64,000 nt of DNA from a bacterium (GTDB taxonomy: Bacteria; Patescibacteriota; Saccharimonadia; Saccharimonadales; Saccharimonadaceae): contig CAVFLV010000014.1 in the NCBI GenBank assembly GCA_963623485.1, positions 6,461 to 70,460 of the forward strand. Direction: 5' to 3'. Positions 45,352-52,938 of this stretch are shown here, one piece after another. Numbering within the stretch: the first letter of the stretch is position 1; each line of letters opens with the position of its first letter. The notes under the pieces were generated by a model. That model ran no database searches. It saw only the letters and a program-made list of their open reading frames with translations, and was not told the DNA's origin. Position numbers and translations under genes: made by a program.

Positions 45352-45427
45352 TGGAGCCGACTGTCGGGATCGAACCGACGACCTACGGTTTACAAAACCG
45401 TTGCTCTGCCAGCTGAGCTAAGTCGGC
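45352..45427 (-). tRNA. tRNA-Thr (anticodon TGT)
   Basis: Reverse complement GCCGACTTAGCTCAGCTGGCAGAGCAACGGTTTTGTAAACCGTAGGTCGTCGGTTCGATCCCGACAGTCGGCTCCA folds as a cloverleaf. Confidence 0.93.
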
Positions 45428-45451
45428 AACCACTTTTATTATACCACAATT

Positions 45452-45991
45452 TTAATAATTGCTAGCCTTAATTTCGAAATACGCCTGCGGATGCGCGCAC
45501 ACCGGACAAATTTCCGGCGCATCCTTGCCGACCACAATATGCCCACAATTTCGGCACACCCAAATCGCCTCACCGTCGCGCGAAAAAACCTTTTTCGTCT
45601 CGACGTTCTCTAGCAACTTCAAAAACCGCTCTTCGTGCGACTTTTCAATCGCTGCCACCCCTTCAAACTTTTCCGCAAGCTCATTAAAGCCTTCTTCGCG
45701 CGCAGTCTCGGCAAAACCCTTGTACATATCGGTATATTCGTAATTTTCGCCCGCCGCTGCCGACTTTAAGTTTTCCGCCGTCCCGGCGATTTCTCCGCCA
45801 CAAAGTTCCTTAAACCACATTTTGGCGTGCTCTTTTTCGTTGTTTGCCGTCTCCTCAAACAGCGCTGCAATCTGCTCAAACCCCTCTTTTTTCGCCTTTG
45901 ACGCAAAATATGAGTATTTATTACGCGCTTCGCTCTCCCCAGCAAACGCCTTTTTCAAATTTTCATAGGTTTTTGAACCTTCTAATTTCAT
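45452..45991 (-). CDS. rbr: rubrerythrin
   Basis: Ferritin-like diiron EE..H motifs plus a C-terminal rubredoxin CRNCGH..CPVC. Confidence 0.92.
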
Positions 45992-46074
45992 ATTTCCTCC
46001 TTGCTTTCATTATATTATAATCTATGGCAAATTCCAACCGAAATACACCGAAATTGTGCTAAAATGAGGGTAAC

Positions 46075-46803
46075 ATGACGAAAAAATCATCAAAACGCCA
46101 GTTTGTATCCCAAAAATCTAATCCGACCGGGCCTTCAAAAACCGTTCCGGCCGTTCGTAGCCGCACGGTGGTCTATTCTGGTGCATTGTTTATTGCCGTA
46201 AATTTTTTGCTCGCGATATTTAACTTCTTTGCTGGAATTTTGTCGAACTCTCTCGCGATTATCTCTGACGCGGCGCACAGCCTGATCGACTCCGCCTCTG
46301 GTTTTATCATCATCATTAGCGAAAAACTCGCCAACTCTACTAAATTCAGCCCTCATCGCGCCAAAATCGAGCGCATCGCCACCATTTTTGTAGCTTTAAT
46401 TATTGTTGCCGTTGGCGCGCATCTTGTCATCGAGGCTGTCGAGAAGATTTTTACCCCCGAGCCGGTCGATTACCCTCCGCTCACGCTCGCGATTTTGGTG
46501 GTCGGGCTAATTATGAAATATGCCCTCGCGATATATCTAAAACGCACCGGGCAGAAACTCAATTCCAGCGTTCTCACTGCCTCTGGCGCCGAGACGATGA
46601 ACGACGCCTGGATTTCGGTCGCTGTGCTGGCTTCGGCACTAATTTATCTGATTTTCAATATCGACCTCGAGGCTTACCTTACCCTTGCGATTGCTGTTGT
46701 AATTATCAAAATCGGCGCCGAATTCATTTTTCCGCATCTTTCCGCCCATCACCACCATCCCTTCGAGTCCAATCCCGACCACGACCATTGTGAAAAACCC
46801 TAA
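46075..46803 (+). CDS. cation diffusion facilitator (CDF) family transporter, short form with His-rich tail
   Basis: AIISDAAHSLIDS motif in TM2, six TM helices, C-terminal SAHHHHPFESNPDHDHC. Confidence 0.75.
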   Translation: MTKKSSKRQFVSQKSNPTGPSKTVPAVRSRTVVYSGALFIAVNFLLAIFNFFAGILSNSLAIISDAAHSLIDSASGFIIIISEKLANSTKFSPHRAKIERIATIFVALIIVAVGAHLVIEAVEKIFTPEPVDYPPLTLAILVVGLIMKYALAIYLKRTGQKLNSSVLTASGAETMNDAWISVAVLASALIYLIFNIDLEAYLTLAIAVVIIKIGAEFIFPHLSAHHHHPFESNPDHDHCEKP

Positions 46804-46857
46804 ATTTTAACAAAATCCTTGGCAGCAAACATAATTTTTGATATAATAAACCTAGTT

Positions 46858-46943
46858 GCTGGAGTCGTCTAGTGGCAATGACAAGAGACTGTAAATCTCT
46901 CGCGCTTCGCGCTTCGTAGGTTCGAGTCCTACCTCCAGCACCA
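46858..46943 (+). tRNA. tRNA-Tyr (anticodon GTA), long variable arm
   Basis: Acceptor GCTGGAG/CTCCAGC, anticodon loop CTGTAAA, variable arm CGCGCTTCGCGC, T arm GTAGG TTCGAGT CCTAC, encoded ACCA. Confidence 0.93.
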
Positions 46944-46998
46944 CGTCCTATCGGACGCACATCAAAAATCAGGACGTCGGATTTCGCTTCGCTCAATG

Positions 46999-47019
46999 CG
47001 AGTCCTACCTCCAGCACCA
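46999..47019 (+). repeat. perfect 21-nt duplicate of the tRNA-Tyr 3' end (att-like scar)
   Basis: cgagtcctacctccagcacca occurs at 46923-46943 (inside the tRNA) and again at 46999-47019. The preceding ~20 nt resemble a degenerate variable arm. Confidence 0.9.
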
Positions 47020-47087
47020 CATTTTAAAAAACTACAACTCCTTCAGGGGTCTTTTTTATTTTTACCAGATATGCTACAATAAAAGCC

Positions 47088-47483
47088 ATGAAAATTGGAA
47101 AAATCATACCAAACGGGGTAAGTTTAGAAAAACACGAGAATGAAACGATAGTATTTTTCACTAACCTTGGGCGTAATATTGAGCTAATCCCACCTTCGAA
47201 TATTCCAAAGACTAAAACTCCCGATTTTACAATGGATGGCAAGTCCTGGGAGATGAAAAGCCCACAAGGCAAAAGCCGCGTCACCGTAGAACATGCTTCT
47301 AAACGCGCGGCGAAATAATCCGAGAACATCGTAATAGACCTAAGGCGCACTCAAATCCCCACAATCCAAGCAAGCCTTTCTTTAGAAAAATTATTTAAAG
47401 CCTCGCGTCGTGTGCGCCGTCTCAAGATTATCACTAGAGAACAGGAATTACTTGACTTTAAAAAAATGAGCATGCTACAATAA
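47088..47483 (+). pseudogene. small PD-(D/E)xK nuclease-like (toxin-domain-like) gene interrupted by an in-frame TAA
   Basis: TPDFTMDGKSWEMKSP gives PD..ExK. The 76-aa ORF stops at TAA 47316-18. The same frame then continues SENIVIDLRRTQ...LLDFKKMSMLQ* to 47483. TGCTACAAT lies 7 nt before the ATG. Confidence 0.6.
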
Positions 47484-47489
47484 AAATAC

Positions 47490-47537
47490 TGAGGGCGACC
47501 TTTTGTCGAAGAGCAAAAGGCCAAGCCCTCATTTTTT
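47490..47537 (+). terminator. intrinsic terminator
   Basis: tgagggc..ccttttg...caaaagg..gccctca followed by tttttt. Confidence 0.75.
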
Positions 47538-47615
47538 GGCGGCAAGCAAAACTACAAAACTGTTTATTTTTTTATCTTTTCTACAAAAATATGTGATATA
47601 ATAGGAAAAGAACAC

Positions 47616-47691
47616 GCCGCGATAGCTCAGTTGGTAGAGCGCATCCATGGTAAGGATGAGGTCACCGGTTCAAACCCGGTTCGCGGCTCCA
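47616..47691 (+). tRNA. tRNA-Thr (anticodon GGT)
   Basis: Acceptor GCCGCGA/TCGCGGC, anticodon stem-loop CATCC ATGGTAA GGATG, T arm ACCGG TTCAAAC CCGGT, encoded TCCA. Confidence 0.93.
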
Positions 47692-47708
47692 GGATACGTC
47701 CCACCTCA

Positions 47709-47739
47709 AGCTCATGAGCCAAAAGTTCATGAGCTTTTT
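47709..47739 (+). terminator. intrinsic terminator after tRNA-Thr
   Basis: agctcatga / tcatgagct stem followed by tttt. Confidence 0.75.
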
Positions 47740-47826
47740 GTCATATCATAGTTCACATAAAAATCCACCGACATCGTCGGGGGCACAGGAGTTCTTTTAA
47801 TCAATGTCAATAGTTTTTACATAATC

Positions 47827-47855
47827 TTGACTATTCAGAGAAAATGTGCTACAAT
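47827..47855 (+). promoter_or_regulatory. consensus promoter of the 61-aa/16-aa micro-operon
   Basis: TTGACT-N17-TACAAT with TGC extension. Confidence 0.65.
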
Positions 47856-47917
47856 GAAAGCATATTTCTGTGGGCAAAATAGCACGTTCCAAAAAATCTC
47901 ATATAGGAGGGGAAGAT

Positions 47918-48103
47918 ATGCAAGTAGATTTTAATGGCAACCTGATTAATTTTGAACTCAGCCGAGCTAACTTTGCCAAAAAATATGGCACAGACAGCCT
48001 CGTCTGGTTCAGCACCAGAGAGACAGACAAAGTCACCGTCGATGAGCAGGCTAGCGATTTATACGCTAAATATGCCTCGATCCATGGCTCACAAGATACT
48101 TAA
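47918..48103 (+). CDS. hypothetical 61-aa protein
   Basis: ATG 47918 preceded by TAGGAGGGG (track ORF starts at GTG 47870). Sequence MQVDFNGNLINFELSRANFAKKYG... Confidence 0.5.
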   Translation: MQVDFNGNLINFELSRANFAKKYGTDSLVWFSTRETDKVTVDEQASDLYAKYASIHGSQDT

Positions 48104-48127
48104 ATCATATGAAAGGGGGTGATGATT

Positions 48128-48178
48128 ATGGTGAGAGATGAAGCTCTAGGCAAGACAAGAGTCTTTTTTTTGCCATAG
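48128..48178 (+). CDS. possible 16-aa mini-ORF MVRDEALGKTRVFFLP
   Basis: AAAGGGGG SD 8 nt upstream. Lies between the 61-aa gene and the terminator. Not in the ORF track. Confidence 0.2.
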   Translation: MVRDEALGKTRVFFLP

Positions 48179-48182
48179 CCGA

Positions 48183-48211
48183 AACCGCCCCTGCCTGGGG
48201 CGGTTATTTTT
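48183..48211 (+). terminator. intrinsic terminator
   Basis: aaccgcccc / ggggcggtt stem followed by attttt. Confidence 0.8.
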
Positions 48212-48291
48212 ATACGGATTCGTTCCATCAAGTAAACTAGACACACCAAAGGGCATCCACCCAGGAGCGTTTTTAGCAAGGGTTAATCCTA

Positions 48292-48320
48292 TTGACTTTT
48301 TGCGCCATTTATGCTACAAT
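48292..48320 (+). promoter_or_regulatory. consensus promoter of the 251-aa orphan gene
   Basis: TTGACT-N17-TACAAT with TGC extension. Confidence 0.65.
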
Positions 48321-48400
48321 AATATCAATGAGGTTGCCACAATCTATTGTCGCCCCTCAAATATAGAGCCGGCGGGCCTAAAACGTAGGAGATATAAACC

Positions 48401-49156
48401 GTGAGTTTATACAGAAATTTTACACTAAAAGAATGGTTATCTATCAACTGCAATACGAAAGATGTCAACGAGCTCTTCAGTAAAGCCCTGAGGGACAACG
48501 ATGAACCCATGGCGGTGCTTGCGCTCGCTGAGCTCATCAAGCGTGGTGATATCGATCTTGTCACATGCGCCATTCAGGAAGCCACAGATGCTGGGTGTTT
48601 CGCGCTCGGTTCGCACTTCTCAGTCGTTTTTGCAAACGCTTTGACACAGTGTGGCAACCGCGATCCAATCCTAAGGCGTATCGGCAAAAATGTCCGCAAA
48701 AAAGGCTTTTGGCCTAAAACGGCGACGGAGTTGCTCGATGGCGCCGATTCGGCGAGTTCTGGATGCCCTGCGGCGCAAGCCAACGTACGAAACCTCGATA
48801 ATCGACTCGGTCGATTTCTGGAGAGTTTCGCACAGGCCGGATGGTTCTCTATAGAATTCGGATTCTTCGTGCCAGGCACCGAGTGGGACCAGCATTGCAA
48901 AGAGTATGTCTCTGTCAACGTTGGTGAGCATTACGGTCTTGTGGTTAAGAACGGATTCGTCCTCAATCGAGAAGAGATTCCGAACGTCTTAGGCATCCTT
49001 GACGCAGCAGGCATCACGGAGACTCTTCCGGCGTTCAAGGAGGAACATCTCGGTGGAAGCATGGGCATGTACACTCTCAATGGTGATAACTGGGTTAGCG
49101 CCGAAGAAACAGAGAAAGACGGTTTCTTCTATATGACTTGTTACTCCATTGAATAA
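48401..49156 (+). CDS. hypothetical protein (251 aa)
   Basis: GTG start preceded by TAGGAGA. Own promoter and terminator. No family recognised. Confidence 0.6.
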   Translation: MSLYRNFTLKEWLSINCNTKDVNELFSKALRDNDEPMAVLALAELIKRGDIDLVTCAIQEATDAGCFALGSHFSVVFANALTQCGNRDPILRRIGKNVRKKGFWPKTATELLDGADSASSGCPAAQANVRNLDNRLGRFLESFAQAGWFSIEFGFFVPGTEWDQHCKEYVSVNVGEHYGLVVKNGFVLNREEIPNVLGILDAAGITETLPAFKEEHLGGSMGMYTLNGDNWVSAEETEKDGFFYMTCYSIE

Positions 49157-49192
49157 TAACCATCTCTAAAGGTGTCGCACCTTGCAAAATGT

Positions 49193-49219
49193 CCCCGGCA
49201 AACCAGTCGGGGCTTTTTT
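49193..49219 (+). terminator. intrinsic terminator
   Basis: ccccg..cgggg stem followed by cttttttg. Confidence 0.7.
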
Positions 49220-49266
49220 GTGTAATAAATAGCAGACAATAAATCCGCAAAAATTCAAGCAAAATC

Positions 49267-49295
49267 TTGACAAATTAAAGCACTTGTGCTATAAT
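49267..49295 (+). promoter_or_regulatory. consensus promoter of the sigma4/alphaCTD gene
   Basis: TTGACA-N17-TATAAT with TGC extension. Confidence 0.7.
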
Positions 49296-49302
49296 GTAGT
49301 TA

Positions 49303-49319
49303 TTGAGCAATTTGCTCAA
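49303..49319. promoter_or_regulatory. 17-bp perfect palindrome (putative operator) just downstream of the -10
   Basis: TTGAGCAA-T-TTGCTCAA, starting 8 nt after TATAAT. Confidence 0.5.
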
Positions 49320-49531
49320 GCTTAGCACCAAGGAGGTGAGTACATTGAAAATTTTAAGAAAGGAGATTTTTCTATTCACGGGCTTCTGCCCATTATTCCC
49401 TATCTCGTTTTAGGTTTTACCTAAAATTTTATATATAGACACAGTGAACATAGATCATGGAGGACGAACACTTGAAAAATACGAACGACGAAAGAAATAG
49501 CATACACGACACTACTACGGAGGTAGAAATT

Positions 49532-50494
49532 ATGGTAAGAAAAGCAGAAACCCTAAAATCTCTTGACGAGCTTAATCTCTCAGCTAGAACCAAAGCTTAT
49601 TTGAACAATAACTTTGATTCTCTCGAAGAGATCATCATAGAAGGCAGAATAGATGCCTATATACATTCTCTGGACGCTCGAAAAAGTTCAATGCCTAAGT
49701 GGAAAACGGAATTAATTTCCGCGCTTACGGATGCTGGTTTTATCCGCCCTGTGAGCCATTTTCGCATGACTTTTTCCGTCAACGCGCTCTATAGTATCGT
49801 CTATTTGGAGTGGAAAGATTGTTTTTACACCAGCATTGGACAGCTTTCTAACGAGCAGTACGAAGAGTTCGAAAGCTTATCTAGCGAAGTTATAGAGGAA
49901 GTAAAGGACTCACTACGGAATAGACTGACCGAAAGAGAATATGAAATATTTTGTCTTAGGTTCGGTCTGGATCGTACCGGCACACTCAAGGACCTTGAAA
50001 CCGTGGGCAAGTATTTTGGCATTACGAGAGAGCGAGTTCGCCAACACGAGGCGAAAGCTCTGAAGAAGTTAAGACACCACATAACTACGCTTCCAGCAAT
50101 TTTCGATGCCCCAAGCAATTTGGAAGAAACCGCTGAAACTCTGCATGCTGAGCTTGAGGAACTTTACGAGAATCCGGCATTCAAGAGAGCAAACGAGATC
50201 ACGCGGGAGTTAGAACACATGAAAAAGTCGCCGTTCAAGTATGATTGCAAATGCCTCAAGACAGAAGCGTTAGACGATCCTTTTATCGACGATTTGAATC
50301 TGAGTGTTCGTGCGTTTTGCTGCTTAAAGCGCGCCGGAATCAACACCGTATCCGATATTATCGAGCTACCGAAAGATGATTGGTTTAAGATTAGAAATCT
50401 TGGCCGCAAGACCCTGAAAGAGGTGGTAGAAAAAATGCACGCTGCGGGATACAATGAGTTTTATGTCGATATTCCGCCTTTTATGCCACGTTAA
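49532..50494 (+). CDS. composite DNA-binding protein: alphaCTD-like, sigma-70 region 4, alphaCTD-like
   Basis: N-terminal LDELNLSARTKAYL. Middle LTEREYEIFCLRFGL..TLKDLETVGKYFGITRERVRQHEAKALKKLR (sigma region 4 HTH). C-terminal IDDLNLSVRAFCCLKRAGINTVSDII..IRNLGRKTLKEVVEKM (RpoA alphaCTD-like HhH). ATG 49532 follows GGAGG. The track ORF starts at 49457. Confidence 0.65.
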   Translation: MVRKAETLKSLDELNLSARTKAYLNNNFDSLEEIIIEGRIDAYIHSLDARKSSMPKWKTELISALTDAGFIRPVSHFRMTFSVNALYSIVYLEWKDCFYTSIGQLSNEQYEEFESLSSEVIEEVKDSLRNRLTEREYEIFCLRFGLDRTGTLKDLETVGKYFGITRERVRQHEAKALKKLRHHITTLPAIFDAPSNLEETAETLHAELEELYENPAFKRANEITRELEHMKKSPFKYDCKCLKTEALDDPFIDDLNLSVRAFCCLKRAGINTVSDIIELPKDDWFKIRNLGRKTLKEVVEKMHAAGYNEFYVDIPPFMPR

Positions 50495-50537
50495 TTCCTT
50501 TCTTAAAATAATCGCTCTTATTTTAAGAGCAAGAAGT

Positions 50538-50563
50538 CCTCGACAAACCAGTCGGGGCTTTTT
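50538..50563 (+). terminator. intrinsic terminator
   Basis: cctcgac / gtcgggg stem followed by cttttt. Confidence 0.7.
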
Positions 50564-50649
50564 GCTTTTTGTTGACAGCTACTAAAACAAAAAGAGCATT
50601 AAGTATTTATGACCAATAAAAAAGGCCCACTTTTCAAGCGAGCCTTAAG

Positions 50650-51396
50650 TTATTCCGCTGTGTCCCATTCACCGATTTCATCGGCGTCATCGTCGGCATA
50701 TTCGTCGGCGTCGTCCTCGAGGTCTAAATCGAAGAACTCGCTTGAGCTTTCCAAGCCTTCTGAGCCGTCAGATTCATCGAAATCTTTCGAATCGTCGAAA
50801 TCCTCAGGTTCATCCATTCCCATTGCTGGTTTTTCGCGGACCGTCACGAGCGGAACGAGCTCTGGCGTATCCATAGGAGAACACCAGCCGATCTCGCGCG
50901 ACATGTAACGAGGCTTGATAACCTTCATTTCCGGCCCCTCGATTTCCTCTTCGGGATAGACGTAATATCCATCCTCTACCCTGAGAACTTCGAGAGCCCT
51001 AAGCAAGTCAAGGACATCGCCCAGTCGTCCGCCGAATCCTCCGTTTCTGCCGAACATTGATTCATGTAGAATAAATCTTCTATTCGGGAAGCCGTCCTCT
51101 ACATCTTCTTCGATGTAGTAATCACGGCATCCTGAGACGCCATCATGGTAGCAGAGACGATAATAATGTCGCCTCTCAACAACTGACATCTTCTCGCCGG
51201 TTTCTTTCTCATATTCGATCAGGAATCGACCGAGCGCCGCGTATAACTCGTACATAGTCATATCCCGACCGCCTTTCTTTTTGACGGTAAGTCTATCGTC
51301 AAATTCGTCGTAGTCTACGACGAAGCGTGTTATTGTAGCATCACTCCAATCTGCTACGTCTCCGTCTACTACAAATAATCTTCTAAAATCTTTCAT
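50650..51396 (-). CDS. hypothetical protein with strongly acidic C-terminal tail
   Basis: ATG 51396 preceded by GGAAAGGGG (track start 51432). The last ~55 aa are about 50 % Asp/Glu (DEPEDFDDSKDFDESDGSEG..DDADEYADDDADE). Confidence 0.6.
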   Translation of the reverse strand: MKDFRRLFVVDGDVADWSDATITRFVVDYDEFDDRLTVKKKGGRDMTMYELYAALGRFLIEYEKETGEKMSVVERRHYYRLCYHDGVSGCRDYYIEEDVEDGFPNRRFILHESMFGRNGGFGGRLGDVLDLLRALEVLRVEDGYYVYPEEEIEGPEMKVIKPRYMSREIGWCSPMDTPELVPLVTVREKPAMGMDEPEDFDDSKDFDESDGSEGLESSSEFFDLDLEDDADEYADDDADEIGEWDTAE

Positions 51397-51465
51397 GGTT
51401 ACCCCTTTCCGCGCCCCCCTTGGGCACAACAAAATTAAACTACTATGTTTTTAACATCTTTTTCC

Positions 51466-51494
51466 ATTATAACACGAACAGTCCAAAAAGTCAA
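51466..51494 (-). promoter_or_regulatory. consensus promoter of the acidic-tail gene
   Basis: Minus strand TTGACT-N17-TATAAT with TGT extension. Confidence 0.65.
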
Positions 51495-51544
51495 TAGTTC
51501 CTCTGAATTTGGTTGAGCTATTTTCGCGAAAATAAATAATCCAA

Positions 51545-51572
51545 TTAAAATGCCCGAACTTTTCGTTCGGGC
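51545..51572 (-). terminator. intrinsic terminator of the 125-aa gene
   Basis: GCCCGAAC / GTTCGGGC stem followed on the minus strand by ATTTTAATT. Confidence 0.7.
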
Positions 51573-51591
51573 AAGATGAAAAATGGATTGG

Positions 51592-51969
51592 TTATTCCCC
51601 AGGGAATAACATGATTTCGCCCGTACGGCGCTTAGTGTCGTAAAACGCCCTAAACCTGTACAGGTGAAATACTTTCGACGAGCTATTGTCGAAAGCGTTT
51701 AGGTCTGCGCGGCAATAACCATGCAGGTTGAATTTATTTCCAGAGCCGTCCTCATATTCGAGGCCGGTTATCCTGACATCATCAACCGGCAGTGGTATGT
51801 ATCCGCTACACAGTCGGTCTTGCGGATATGTATATCCAGCTGCGACGTTGAAGTCGACCCGGATATCACAATTGTCACTATACGCGTATTTACACGCGTC
51901 AAACAACAAGTCCTTGCTAGGCCCAAGGACTATCCGATAAACCTTCTGCTCTCCATTTTTGGTATTCAT
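51592..51969 (-). CDS. hypothetical protein (125 aa)
   Basis: AAAGGAGG SD. Own promoter and terminator. No family recognised. Confidence 0.6.
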   Translation of the reverse strand: MNTKNGEQKVYRIVLGPSKDLLFDACKYAYSDNCDIRVDFNVAAGYTYPQDRLCSGYIPLPVDDVRITGLEYEDGSGNKFNLHGYCRADLNAFDNSSSKVFHLYRFRAFYDTKRRTGEIMLFPGE

Positions 51970-52054
51970 ACGAATACCTCCTTTCTAATGTGCTACCAGC
52001 CACATACATGGTCTGGCAAAAAGATTTTAGCCCTAAGCGCAGGCTAATACTTCC

Positions 52055-52083
52055 ATTGTATCACATTTTGTCCAAAATGTCAA
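52055..52083 (-). promoter_or_regulatory. consensus promoter of the 125-aa gene
   Basis: Minus strand TTGACA-N17-TACAAT with TGA extension. Confidence 0.65.
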
Positions 52084-52173
52084 TATATTATATGTTTCCC
52101 ATAGTGCAATCAACTATTTTAACGAATCCCTCTCCTCGACGCAATAGCTGATGATTCCAGAGGCGGATTTGAC

Positions 52174-52938
52174 CTAAATTCGCTTCCTGCCAGCATGGGA
52201 TTTGACGACTTTTGGAGTGGTGGACTTGTGCTCTGCTGGTGTTCGTGTGGCTGCCCGAGCCTTGACTTTTGCTTGCGCCCGCGCCCTCGCCTGCTCTCTA
52301 GCCCGCTGATGCTTAGCCTCGGTTTCTTTTACGATTCTCGCCTCAATTCGCGCCGCCGTCGCCGTCGCTGCCTCGGTGTCGCCCGCATTCTCGTAAATCG
52401 CCAAAATCTGGCGCAGAGTCGAGACTTTCGGGTCTAATTCGTAGGCATTTTCGAGCGCCTCGATGGCTTTTTTGTTGCTTCCGAGCTGTTCCTCGGCCTT
52501 GGCCAGGGCAATATATCGCGCCGGCACGTCGCCCTCGAGCTTAATCGCCTGCAAAAACGCCATTTCCGCCTTTTCGTACGCCCCCGTTTCGAGATAAATC
52601 AGCCCCACGTTATGAATCGACGCCGGATTATTATCGAGCGACTGCGCAATTTCAAAACATTCCACCGCCTCGTCAAACTTCTGTTCCTTGGCATACAAAA
52701 TCCCCAACCGGTTATACGCCGCTGCATTTTTTTCGTCAAACTTCAAAATCGTGAGCAATGCCTTTTCCGCCCGAAACGGCTTGCGCTCCTTCATCGAAAC
52801 CTGCGCAATTTGCCATAATTTTTTCATCTGCGCCGTGTATTTTGGCGACTTTTCCTCGACTTTTTTCTGACGCGGTTCCAGCGGAAAGAAAAACGCCAAA
52901 TAAATCACAAAAATCAGTATTATAAAGACCGCAACCAT
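52174..52938 (-). CDS. membrane-anchored TPR-repeat protein with basic C-terminal tail
   Basis: N-terminal TM and about 4 TPR-like repeats (AAYNRLGILYAKEQKFDEAVECFEIAQ..). Confidence 0.7.
   Translation of the reverse strand: MVAVFIILIFVIYLAFFFPLEPRQKKVEEKSPKYTAQMKKLWQIAQVSMKERKPFRAEKALLTILKFDEKNAAAYNRLGILYAKEQKFDEAVECFEIAQSLDNNPASIHNVGLIYLETGAYEKAEMAFLQAIKLEGDVPARYIALAKAEEQLGSNKKAIEALENAYELDPKVSTLRQILAIYENAGDTEAATATAARIEARIVKETEAKHQRAREQARARAQAKVKARAATRTPAEHKSTTPKVVKSHAGRKRI

Follow-up and report, generated by a model that had tools for sequence, protein, structure and literature searches.

What kind of locus is formed by the row of small, separately transcribed genes at positions 47020-52100 of the 64,000-nucleotide stretch of DNA analyzed here (the window), and how did these genes come to lie beside a pair of tRNA genes? 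The window belongs to contig C14 of genome G000, a 690-kb genome in 28 contigs whose host is Candidatus Nanosyncoccus (Saccharibacteria). An initial annotation had placed the open reading frames (ORFs) and tRNAs of the stretch, which was confirmed, and had read the genes as independent single-gene cassettes collected at a hotspot next to a tRNA attachment scar. The stretch is fairly likely to be a flexible accessory-gene islet at a synteny break, lying between the tRNA-Tyr/tRNA-Thr pair and the TPR-holB-rluD-trpS block. The genus is large, with more than 150 species representatives searchable; the counts below refer to 22 species for the comparison of the site (21 congeners and G000), to 150 congeners for gene families and to 151 species for the hairpin pattern. 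The closest homologues of the islet genes reach 91-99% identity, and close homologues were recorded from ruminant and other gut samples under Candidatus Nanosyncoccus sp. or Candidatus Saccharibacteria bacterium.

The major data were the comparisons of the site across the genus. On the left it is anchored by tRNA-Tyr (gta; 46858-46943, plus strand), detected by ARAGORN and with an Rfam tRNA score of 57.6 bits, and tRNA-Thr (ggt; 47616-47691, plus strand) follows with its own terminator hairpin at 47708-47736. The right anchor is the TPR gene (52174-52938, minus strand), the first gene of the TPR-holB-rluD-trpS block. The TPR gene was present in all 21 congeners and was followed by holB-rluD, mostly with trpS, wherever the contig reached. 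Within the 7 kb beyond its 3' end, 96 ORF families were found across the 22 species, and 84 of these occurred in a single species. At the extreme, in G006 the TPR gene and a cation-efflux gene are separated by about 310 bp that contain tRNA-Tyr and tRNA-Thr only. Conserved flanking core genes and content that differs between relatives were thus both observed, as in a chromosomal accessory-gene hotspot, and the site was accordingly classed as a genuinely variable accessory locus, of a general kind already known. The prediction that the content between tRNA-Tyr and the TPR gene would vary among relatives was borne out; the same genes in the same order in all relatives were not encountered. The two tRNA genes adjoin in most congeners, but which comes first, how they are oriented to each other and where they lie relative to the cation-efflux gene vary from species to species. 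The rearrangements of the tRNAs around window positions 45352-47691 point to repeated small inversions.

The second line of evidence was the design of the genes, which fall into six transcription units. The first, on the plus strand, is a CdiA_C-type (PF18451) nuclease gene with one nonsense codon (47088-47482); it is preceded only by the extended -10 element TGCTACAAT at 47072, as first described, and is followed by a terminator at 47490-47531 (-22.2 kcal/mol). Beyond tRNA-Thr, the same strand carries the p61 unit (47827-48205; promoter 47827-47855, ORF 47918-48103, terminator 48183-48205), the p251 unit (48292-49212; promoter 48292-48320, ORF 48401-49156, terminator 49193-49212) and the unit of a protein with sigma region 4 and RNA polymerase alpha C-terminal domains, here termed sigma4/alphaCTD (49267-50557; 12/12 promoter 49267-49295, ORF 49457-50494, terminator 50538-50557). 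The minus strand carries the unit of a protein with an acidic tail (50622-51494; promoter 51494-51466, ORF 51396-50650, terminator 50646-50622) and the p125 unit (51551-52083; promoter 52083-52055, ORF 51969-51592, terminator 51573-51551). The orientations are therefore mixed, as the initial annotation had noted, with three or four units on the plus strand followed by two on the minus strand.

The promoters of p61, p251, sigma4/alphaCTD, the acidic-tail gene and p125 are all exact matches to TTGAC[AT]-N14-TGNTA[CT]AAT (plus strand: 47827, 48292 and 49267; minus strand: 51494 and 52083). Only 41 exact matches exist genome-wide, and the five within 5.15 kb compare with 0.31 expected (Poisson about 2e-5 by our own arithmetic). 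Near-consensus promoters, one per gene, had been proposed at first and proved real, but their number is five rather than four. A sixth promoter-like site, found at 47452 within the 3' end of the nuclease pseudogene, has an 18-nt spacer. The islet promoters follow the host's own pattern, down to the T- or A-run behind the -35 box, and therefore have no imported look. An intrinsic terminator follows every one of the six units. The acidic-tail gene had been thought to lack a clear terminator; this was an error, since its hairpin has a free energy of -14.3 kcal/mol, a U-run and a z score of -3.9, and the terminators reported for the other units were confirmed. The terminators of the p251 and sigma4/alphaCTD genes share a common 35-nt sequence (89% identity) that occurs nowhere else in the genome. 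It was concluded that the islet genes form insulated transcription units, each with a strong promoter of the type native to this genome and an intrinsic terminator. Foreign base composition was considered and rejected, as the GC content and the GC content at third codon positions (GC3) of the genes lie within 1.6 standard deviations of the genome, measured against its long ORFs. The heterogeneous composition first suspected thus has little behind it, codon adaptation being the sole consistently low measure (z -0.9 to -1.8).

The history of the content was deduced mainly from the sister species G390, whose core proteins are 92-99% identical to those of G000 and whose site has the same order, TPR-p125-acidic-tail-...-sigma4/alphaCTD. 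Between the two species, the synonymous divergence (dS) of p125, the acidic-tail gene and sigma4/alphaCTD was 0.31-0.43, compared with 0.33-0.48 for flanking core genes, and the ratios of nonsynonymous to synonymous divergence (dN/dS) of the three genes were 0.03, 0.07 and 0.17. The core-like dS and low dN/dS argue that these three genes are functional, under purifying selection and inherited with the chromosome since the G390 split. This counts against the original view of collected mobile cassettes. In G390 two extra genes lie between the acidic-tail and sigma4/alphaCTD genes (locus L068, G390:C16 13019-14817): an MYG1-family gene (PF03690) and a gene for a 127-aa protein that matches PHROG 20678 and has its own 12/12 promoter and terminator. 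The notion of single-gene cassettes is supported by this extra unit between shared genes, but it does not extend to the nuclease and p61, which are remnants. In G390 the acidic-tail gene is frameshifted ahead of the tail, which is thereby lost.

The families of the islet were also found together elsewhere. Full-length p251 homologues were found in seven other species, and in four of the eight species, G000 included, a sigma4-family gene lies directly after p251. The p125 family was present in 65 of the 150 congeners, full-length or truncated p251 in 2/150 and the acidic-tail protein in 4/150. In at least nine genomes, no more than 3.5 kb separated a p125 gene from a sigma4-family gene. In three of these, G344, G399 and G409, arrays of five or six paralogs combining sigma4 with helix-hairpin-helix (HhH) motifs are interleaved with two p125 copies. 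The p251 homologues adjoin different tRNAs across species (Thr, Leu-caa, Leu-gag, Gly and Val/Lys/Phe), and one adjoins an rve transposase. The units thus appear not to be independent, since the p251, sigma4/alphaCTD and p125 families recur as neighbors in other species, and the claim of unrelated cassettes was given up. The picture is one of a small set of co-travelling, genus-restricted families at tRNA-adjacent variable sites. The original hotspot of mobile single-gene cassettes is upheld as to hypervariability and insulated units, but not as to independence or a tie to the attachment scar. Two side observations concern the relatives. The arrays at L102 (G409:C6), L104 (G399:C5) and L106 (G344:C5) have neighbors without a Pfam or PHROG name, and an ADP-ribosylglycohydrolase gene stands at one edge of them. 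In G441 (C7, L107, 6021-10521), a gene for a 192-aa HhH+sigma4 protein lies directly upstream of rpoB; the large gene beside it had been considered as a secretion protein, which was rejected when it was identified as rpoB.

Taken together, the four intact genes are probably a loosely linked accessory set, with genus-restricted families that travel together. The set would be centered on the DNA-binding sigma4/alphaCTD protein, which has promoter-reading domains of RNA polymerase and may act as a regulator by binding -35/UP-like DNA. Turnover would come about through recombination at the conserved flanks and through whole promoter-gene-terminator units being inserted or deleted; because the units are self-sufficient, such shuffling would be tolerable, and site-specific integration would play no part. 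Natural competence, documented in Saccharibacteria (PMC10633639), would permit such recombination. The two units nearest the tRNAs, the nuclease gene and p61, are decaying. A regulator (sigma4/alphaCTD) with partner proteins in epibiont interactions was considered the most reasonable working model. Several points weigh against the interpretation as a flexible islet with a travelling gene set. Because the species behind the linkage counts are related, the counts are not independent and amount to about four distinct arrangement classes. Turnover has not been fast since the G390 split, p125, the acidic-tail gene and sigma4/alphaCTD being stable. Recombination at the flanks was deduced rather than observed, and the transcription starts and stops in the islet are predicted. 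Fold searches of the PDB with the p251 and p125 models gave no convincing match, and no intact gene could be assigned a function.

An origin by integration was weighed against these data. The 3' end of tRNA-Tyr is duplicated downstream on the plus strand, with 22 nt exact and about 40 nt recognizable, the two copies at 46923-46944 and 46999-47020 lying 76 nt apart. The locus might therefore be read as the decayed remnant of an integrated mobile element (prophage or integrative island) whose point of entry was the 3' end of tRNA-Tyr and whose surviving genes are moron-like cargo. No further copy of the repeat was found anywhere in the genome with up to two mismatches, so that a third copy at the far end is missing, and the duplicate is conserved in G004, G017, G012 and G001, where the content differs. 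The recombinases of the genome, two tyrosine recombinases (PF00589) and one rve gene (PF00665), lie on contigs C2 and C5 and on C22, respectively, and none was detected on C14 with these models, neither integrase nor transposase. Because the duplicate is conserved in species with other content, has no third copy and is accompanied by recombinases on other contigs only, it was concluded to be an old integration-type scar and not the boundary of the present content. The attachment scar of the initial annotation thus exists as a 22-nt duplicate, but it is unconnected to the genes now present. An active tRNA-targeting integrative island was rejected on the same grounds, namely the missing distal repeat and integrase and the sharing of the scar by several species.

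The remnant hypothesis also draws on the genes themselves. One gene with one promoter and one terminator is the classic layout of morons, and the units of the islet match it; the sigma4+alphaCTD architecture is common in ESM Atlas clusters labelled Uroviricota and matches PHROG 351. Placement within a prophage, the other mark of a moron, was not found: no structural or replication genes were detected with PHROGs, the flanks are core genes, and neither three IMG/VR scans nor the phage collection gave support, so that a prophage was rejected. No relative of p251, p125 or sigma4 was found in IMG/VR, and the matches in the phage collection were to single domains. One such record, MT835508.1 (Bacteriophage sp.), was inspected, and the stretch examined proved to be the rpsD-rpoA-rplQ genes of a Clostridia-like bacterium misfiled as phage, so a phage origin cannot be argued from RNA-polymerase domains that match such records. 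With promoters of the host type and dS equal to that of core genes as well, an origin of the islet as a prophage or island remnant was judged unlikely.

The same dS values and the host-type promoters could also be taken to mean that these are ordinary lineage-specific genes, inherited vertically and lying at a chance synteny break, in which case no hotspot behavior would be involved and the promoters would be those usual for monocistronic genes. This is consistent with the synteny of p125, the acidic-tail gene and sigma4/alphaCTD in G390 and with the unremarkable GC and GC3. It is not consistent with a site at which 84 of 96 ORF families are confined to one of 22 species and which is empty in G006, nor with the patchy distribution of the p251, acidic-tail and p125 families, their appearance at other tRNA-adjacent loci in other species, or the unit inserted in G390. 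Purely vertical inheritance was accordingly considered decidedly unlikely, and the flexible islet remained the preferred interpretation. An integron cassette array was rejected, as the units have their own promoters, both orientations and only two similar terminators, with no intI and no attC family.

The products were next assigned as far as possible. Their lack of resemblance to housekeeping families was confirmed, and none of the orphans could be named from a PADLOC, NCBIfam or Pfam model. In the 345-aa form of the sigma4/alphaCTD protein, Sigma70_r4 was located at residues 156-207 and RNA_pol_A_CTD at residues 271-328. A sigma-70 family sigma factor was rejected, because no region 2 match was found and these two domains stood alone; the NCBIfam sigma and rpoA models all scored far under their cut-offs. 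The N-terminal helix-hairpin-helix stretch resembles the RpoA CTD of congener G015, which is 76% identical to the RpoA of G000. The best PDB scores of the sigma4 part and the C-terminal alphaCTD were to Firmicutes sigma-A and RpoA. By our own count, identity between the C-terminal alphaCTD and one Clostridia-like RpoA CTD is 60%; a tblastn comparison of this domain with the rpoA of G000 found no match, and the sigma4 part reaches only 44-45% identity to the sigma genes of G000. The domains look more like Firmicutes RNA polymerase than like that of the epibiont itself, and on a reading judged unlikely the protein could act on foreign (host or phage) promoters rather than on its own. As for its start, the annotated ATG at 49457 has no ribosome-binding site, and the ATG at 49534, with GGAGGT upstream, is the more likely start on this Shine-Dalgarno signal. 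The leader (49302-49533) is 92% identical to that of G390 over 307 aligned columns, compared with 88% for the whole sigma4/alphaCTD region, and it contains a small ORF of 22 codons (49346-49414) behind a strong AAGGAGGTG site that is open in G390 too.

About 55 homologue clusters of the p251 protein were found, 50-91% identical to it and uniformly about 248 aa long. The predicted p251 model (pLDDT 80.5) comprises a helical-repeat N-domain (residues 9-112), a disordered linker and an alpha/beta C-domain. Foldseek found no match of the model among solved structures, and VIA-align gave generic helical-repeat matches to residues 1-110 alone (Z up to 7.2). Residues 8-100 of p251 (window 48422-48700) are homologous to residues ~660-750 of a polytopic membrane protein of ~1130-1150 aa encoded at G000 C15:12058-15441, inside a type IV secretion cluster, together with a PrgI-family gene, a VirB4/TraG P-loop ATPase and type IV secretion pilins. 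The BLASTP value was 1e-7, and a profile gave an E value of 3e-5 as the sole significant non-self match in the genome. The N-domain also matches ORFs of ~1000-1200 aa in some three dozen congeners, and small proteins with the same N-domain and varied C termini occur in about a dozen species, one of them in G015, immediately behind tRNA-Thr(ggt). Many Patescibacteria have type IV secretion, with substrates unknown, and the virB6 gene of the apparatus was essential for growth in a cultivated Saccharibacterium (10.1101/2025.01.22.634366). On the same unlikely reading, p251 and its relatives could be secretion-associated polymorphic proteins, either substrates or modulators.

The p125 protein has 26 homologue clusters, and its predicted model (pLDDT 85.5) is a small alpha+beta sheet protein whose best fold match was CBF-beta (Z 5.7). 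For the acidic-tail protein, a word-indexed search returned 3 matches and exhaustive HMMER on the N-domain returned 41 representatives; no informative Pfam domain was found in the larger members among these 41, and no usable match in the ESM Atlas. The p61 protein aligns to the first ~56 residues of CxxC proteins of ~130 aa in three congeners and ends where those continue, and it is thus a truncated remnant comprising the N-terminal ~45% of this family.

The nuclease gene was assessed against its two paralogs on contigs C8 and C15. The intact paralogs scored 58.3 and 50.9 bits to PF18451 (CdiA_C; cut-off 26.6) over profile positions 1-80/81. The window copy scored 25.1 bits, below the cut-off because the stop codon cuts the domain. 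This codon is an in-frame TAA at 47316-47318 where both paralogs encode Gln. As the paralogs are clear CdiA_C members, the window copy is a recent pseudogene. No CdiI-type immunity model (Pfam, NCBIfam or PADLOC) matched any neighbor of the nuclease.

What does accompany the nuclease is an RNA structure. All three paralogs have a promoter-like site over their last codons, followed by a two-tier hairpin and a U-run (window 47452-47537, plus strand; C8:11595-11650; C15:23664-23720). In the window this site is TTGACT-18-TACAAT with TG, and the hairpin handles are invariant (GGGCGACC ... GGCCAAGCCC). The strict hairpin pattern was found in 29 copies in 23/151 Nanosyncoccus species, with none in a reversed control, and 19 of the 29 copies lie about 26 nt past a CdiA_C-like ORF on the same strand. 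The inner stem covaries; compensatory changes were observed in 8 of 14 base pairs, with the outer stem and internal loop invariant. The element had no Rfam match and was not found in 150 order-wide genomes, nearly all of them non-Nanosyncoccus. Because a strong promoter fires straight into a terminator and the handles are invariant in sequence, a small RNA product of about 55 nt is suggested; a specialized terminator is possible instead. On a reading judged unlikely, the CdiA_C nuclease and the invariant-handle hairpin RNA could form a new module of protein toxin and RNA partner.

The presence of this nuclease raises the question of a conflict island, in which a CdiA_C-type toxin would be joined by orphans serving as immunity, anti-defense or effector genes, on the model of orphan toxin/immunity arrays; cargo of this kind, or for host interaction, had been suggested in the initial annotation. 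The PF18451 family is present in three copies, and the orphans are small, fast-evolving and patchy. The acidic tail of the 50650-51396 gene product recalls DNA-mimic proteins, and the p251 family, with its conserved N-domain, varied C termini and resemblance to part of a type IV secretion protein, has a polymorphic design. The nuclease of the window is however inactivated and is separated from the orphans by a tRNA gene, and its two paralogs do not have these orphan families alongside. It is moreover an RNA hairpin, not a protein gene, that travels with the nuclease. No orphan matched an immunity, defense or anti-defense model of PADLOC, Pfam or NCBIfam, nor was one matched with PHROGs; the PADLOC models returned only sigma region 4 to MzaA (E 1e-12, one domain) and weak partial matches. 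Cargo of immunity or defense genes found no support in these models, and a conflict island was considered very doubtful. A Nanosyncoccus-specific host-interaction set beside a separate module of CdiA_C nuclease and hairpin RNA, as toxin and RNA partner, was given similarly little credence.

The significance of the locus, read as a flexible islet, lies in its host. Saccharibacteria are epibionts that grow attached to other bacteria; they carry about 700 genes, and names are lacking for most of those that are strain-specific. The locus provides a small, delimited set of testable families (p251, p125, acidic-tail and sigma4/alphaCTD) that are under selection, recur together and move between tRNA-adjacent sites, and it illustrates how accessory genes are kept in such genomes, as self-contained units of promoter, gene and terminator. 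It also brings to light a genus-wide pairing of a nuclease with a structured RNA that Rfam does not contain, as well as a domain in common with the type IV secretion apparatus.

Comparison with known systems places these features more exactly. Like an integron cassette array, the islet is a series of short units of one gene each, and two of the units close with similar hairpin-forming sequences, but it differs in having its own promoters, both orientations and the absence of an IntI-type integrase nearby and of an attC family. Prophage morons share the promoter-gene-terminator unit that is expressed regardless of its surroundings, of which G390 has an extra example, yet here no prophage surrounds the units, no viral relatives were found in IMG/VR and the promoters are of the host type. 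Orphan CdiA-CT modules (PMC3482391) are matched by the PF18451 nuclease domain in several copies as a short free-standing gene; they differ in that here no CdiB/CdiA delivery protein or recognizable CdiI was seen, the constant partner is an RNA hairpin and the window copy has a nonsense codon. The Sigma70_r4 + RNA_pol_A_CTD fusions of CPR bacteria, DPANN archaea and phages in the ESM Atlas likewise join sigma region 4 to an alpha-CTD-type helix-hairpin-helix, with no sigma region 2 and no alpha N-terminal domain, whereas the islet protein has three modules in its 345-aa form and Firmicutes-like domains that are less like the subunits of its own genome. In kind the locus resembles chromosomal hotspots or flexible genomic islets between core genes, which in comparative genomics of horizontal transfer are often found beside tRNA genes. 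As a hotspot the islet is ordinary, with conserved flanks, tRNA neighbors, species-varying content, mostly unknown small genes and no mobility genes inside; it is set apart by a host genome of only 690 kb, by genes that each form a separate unit and by a few genus-restricted families that recur together.

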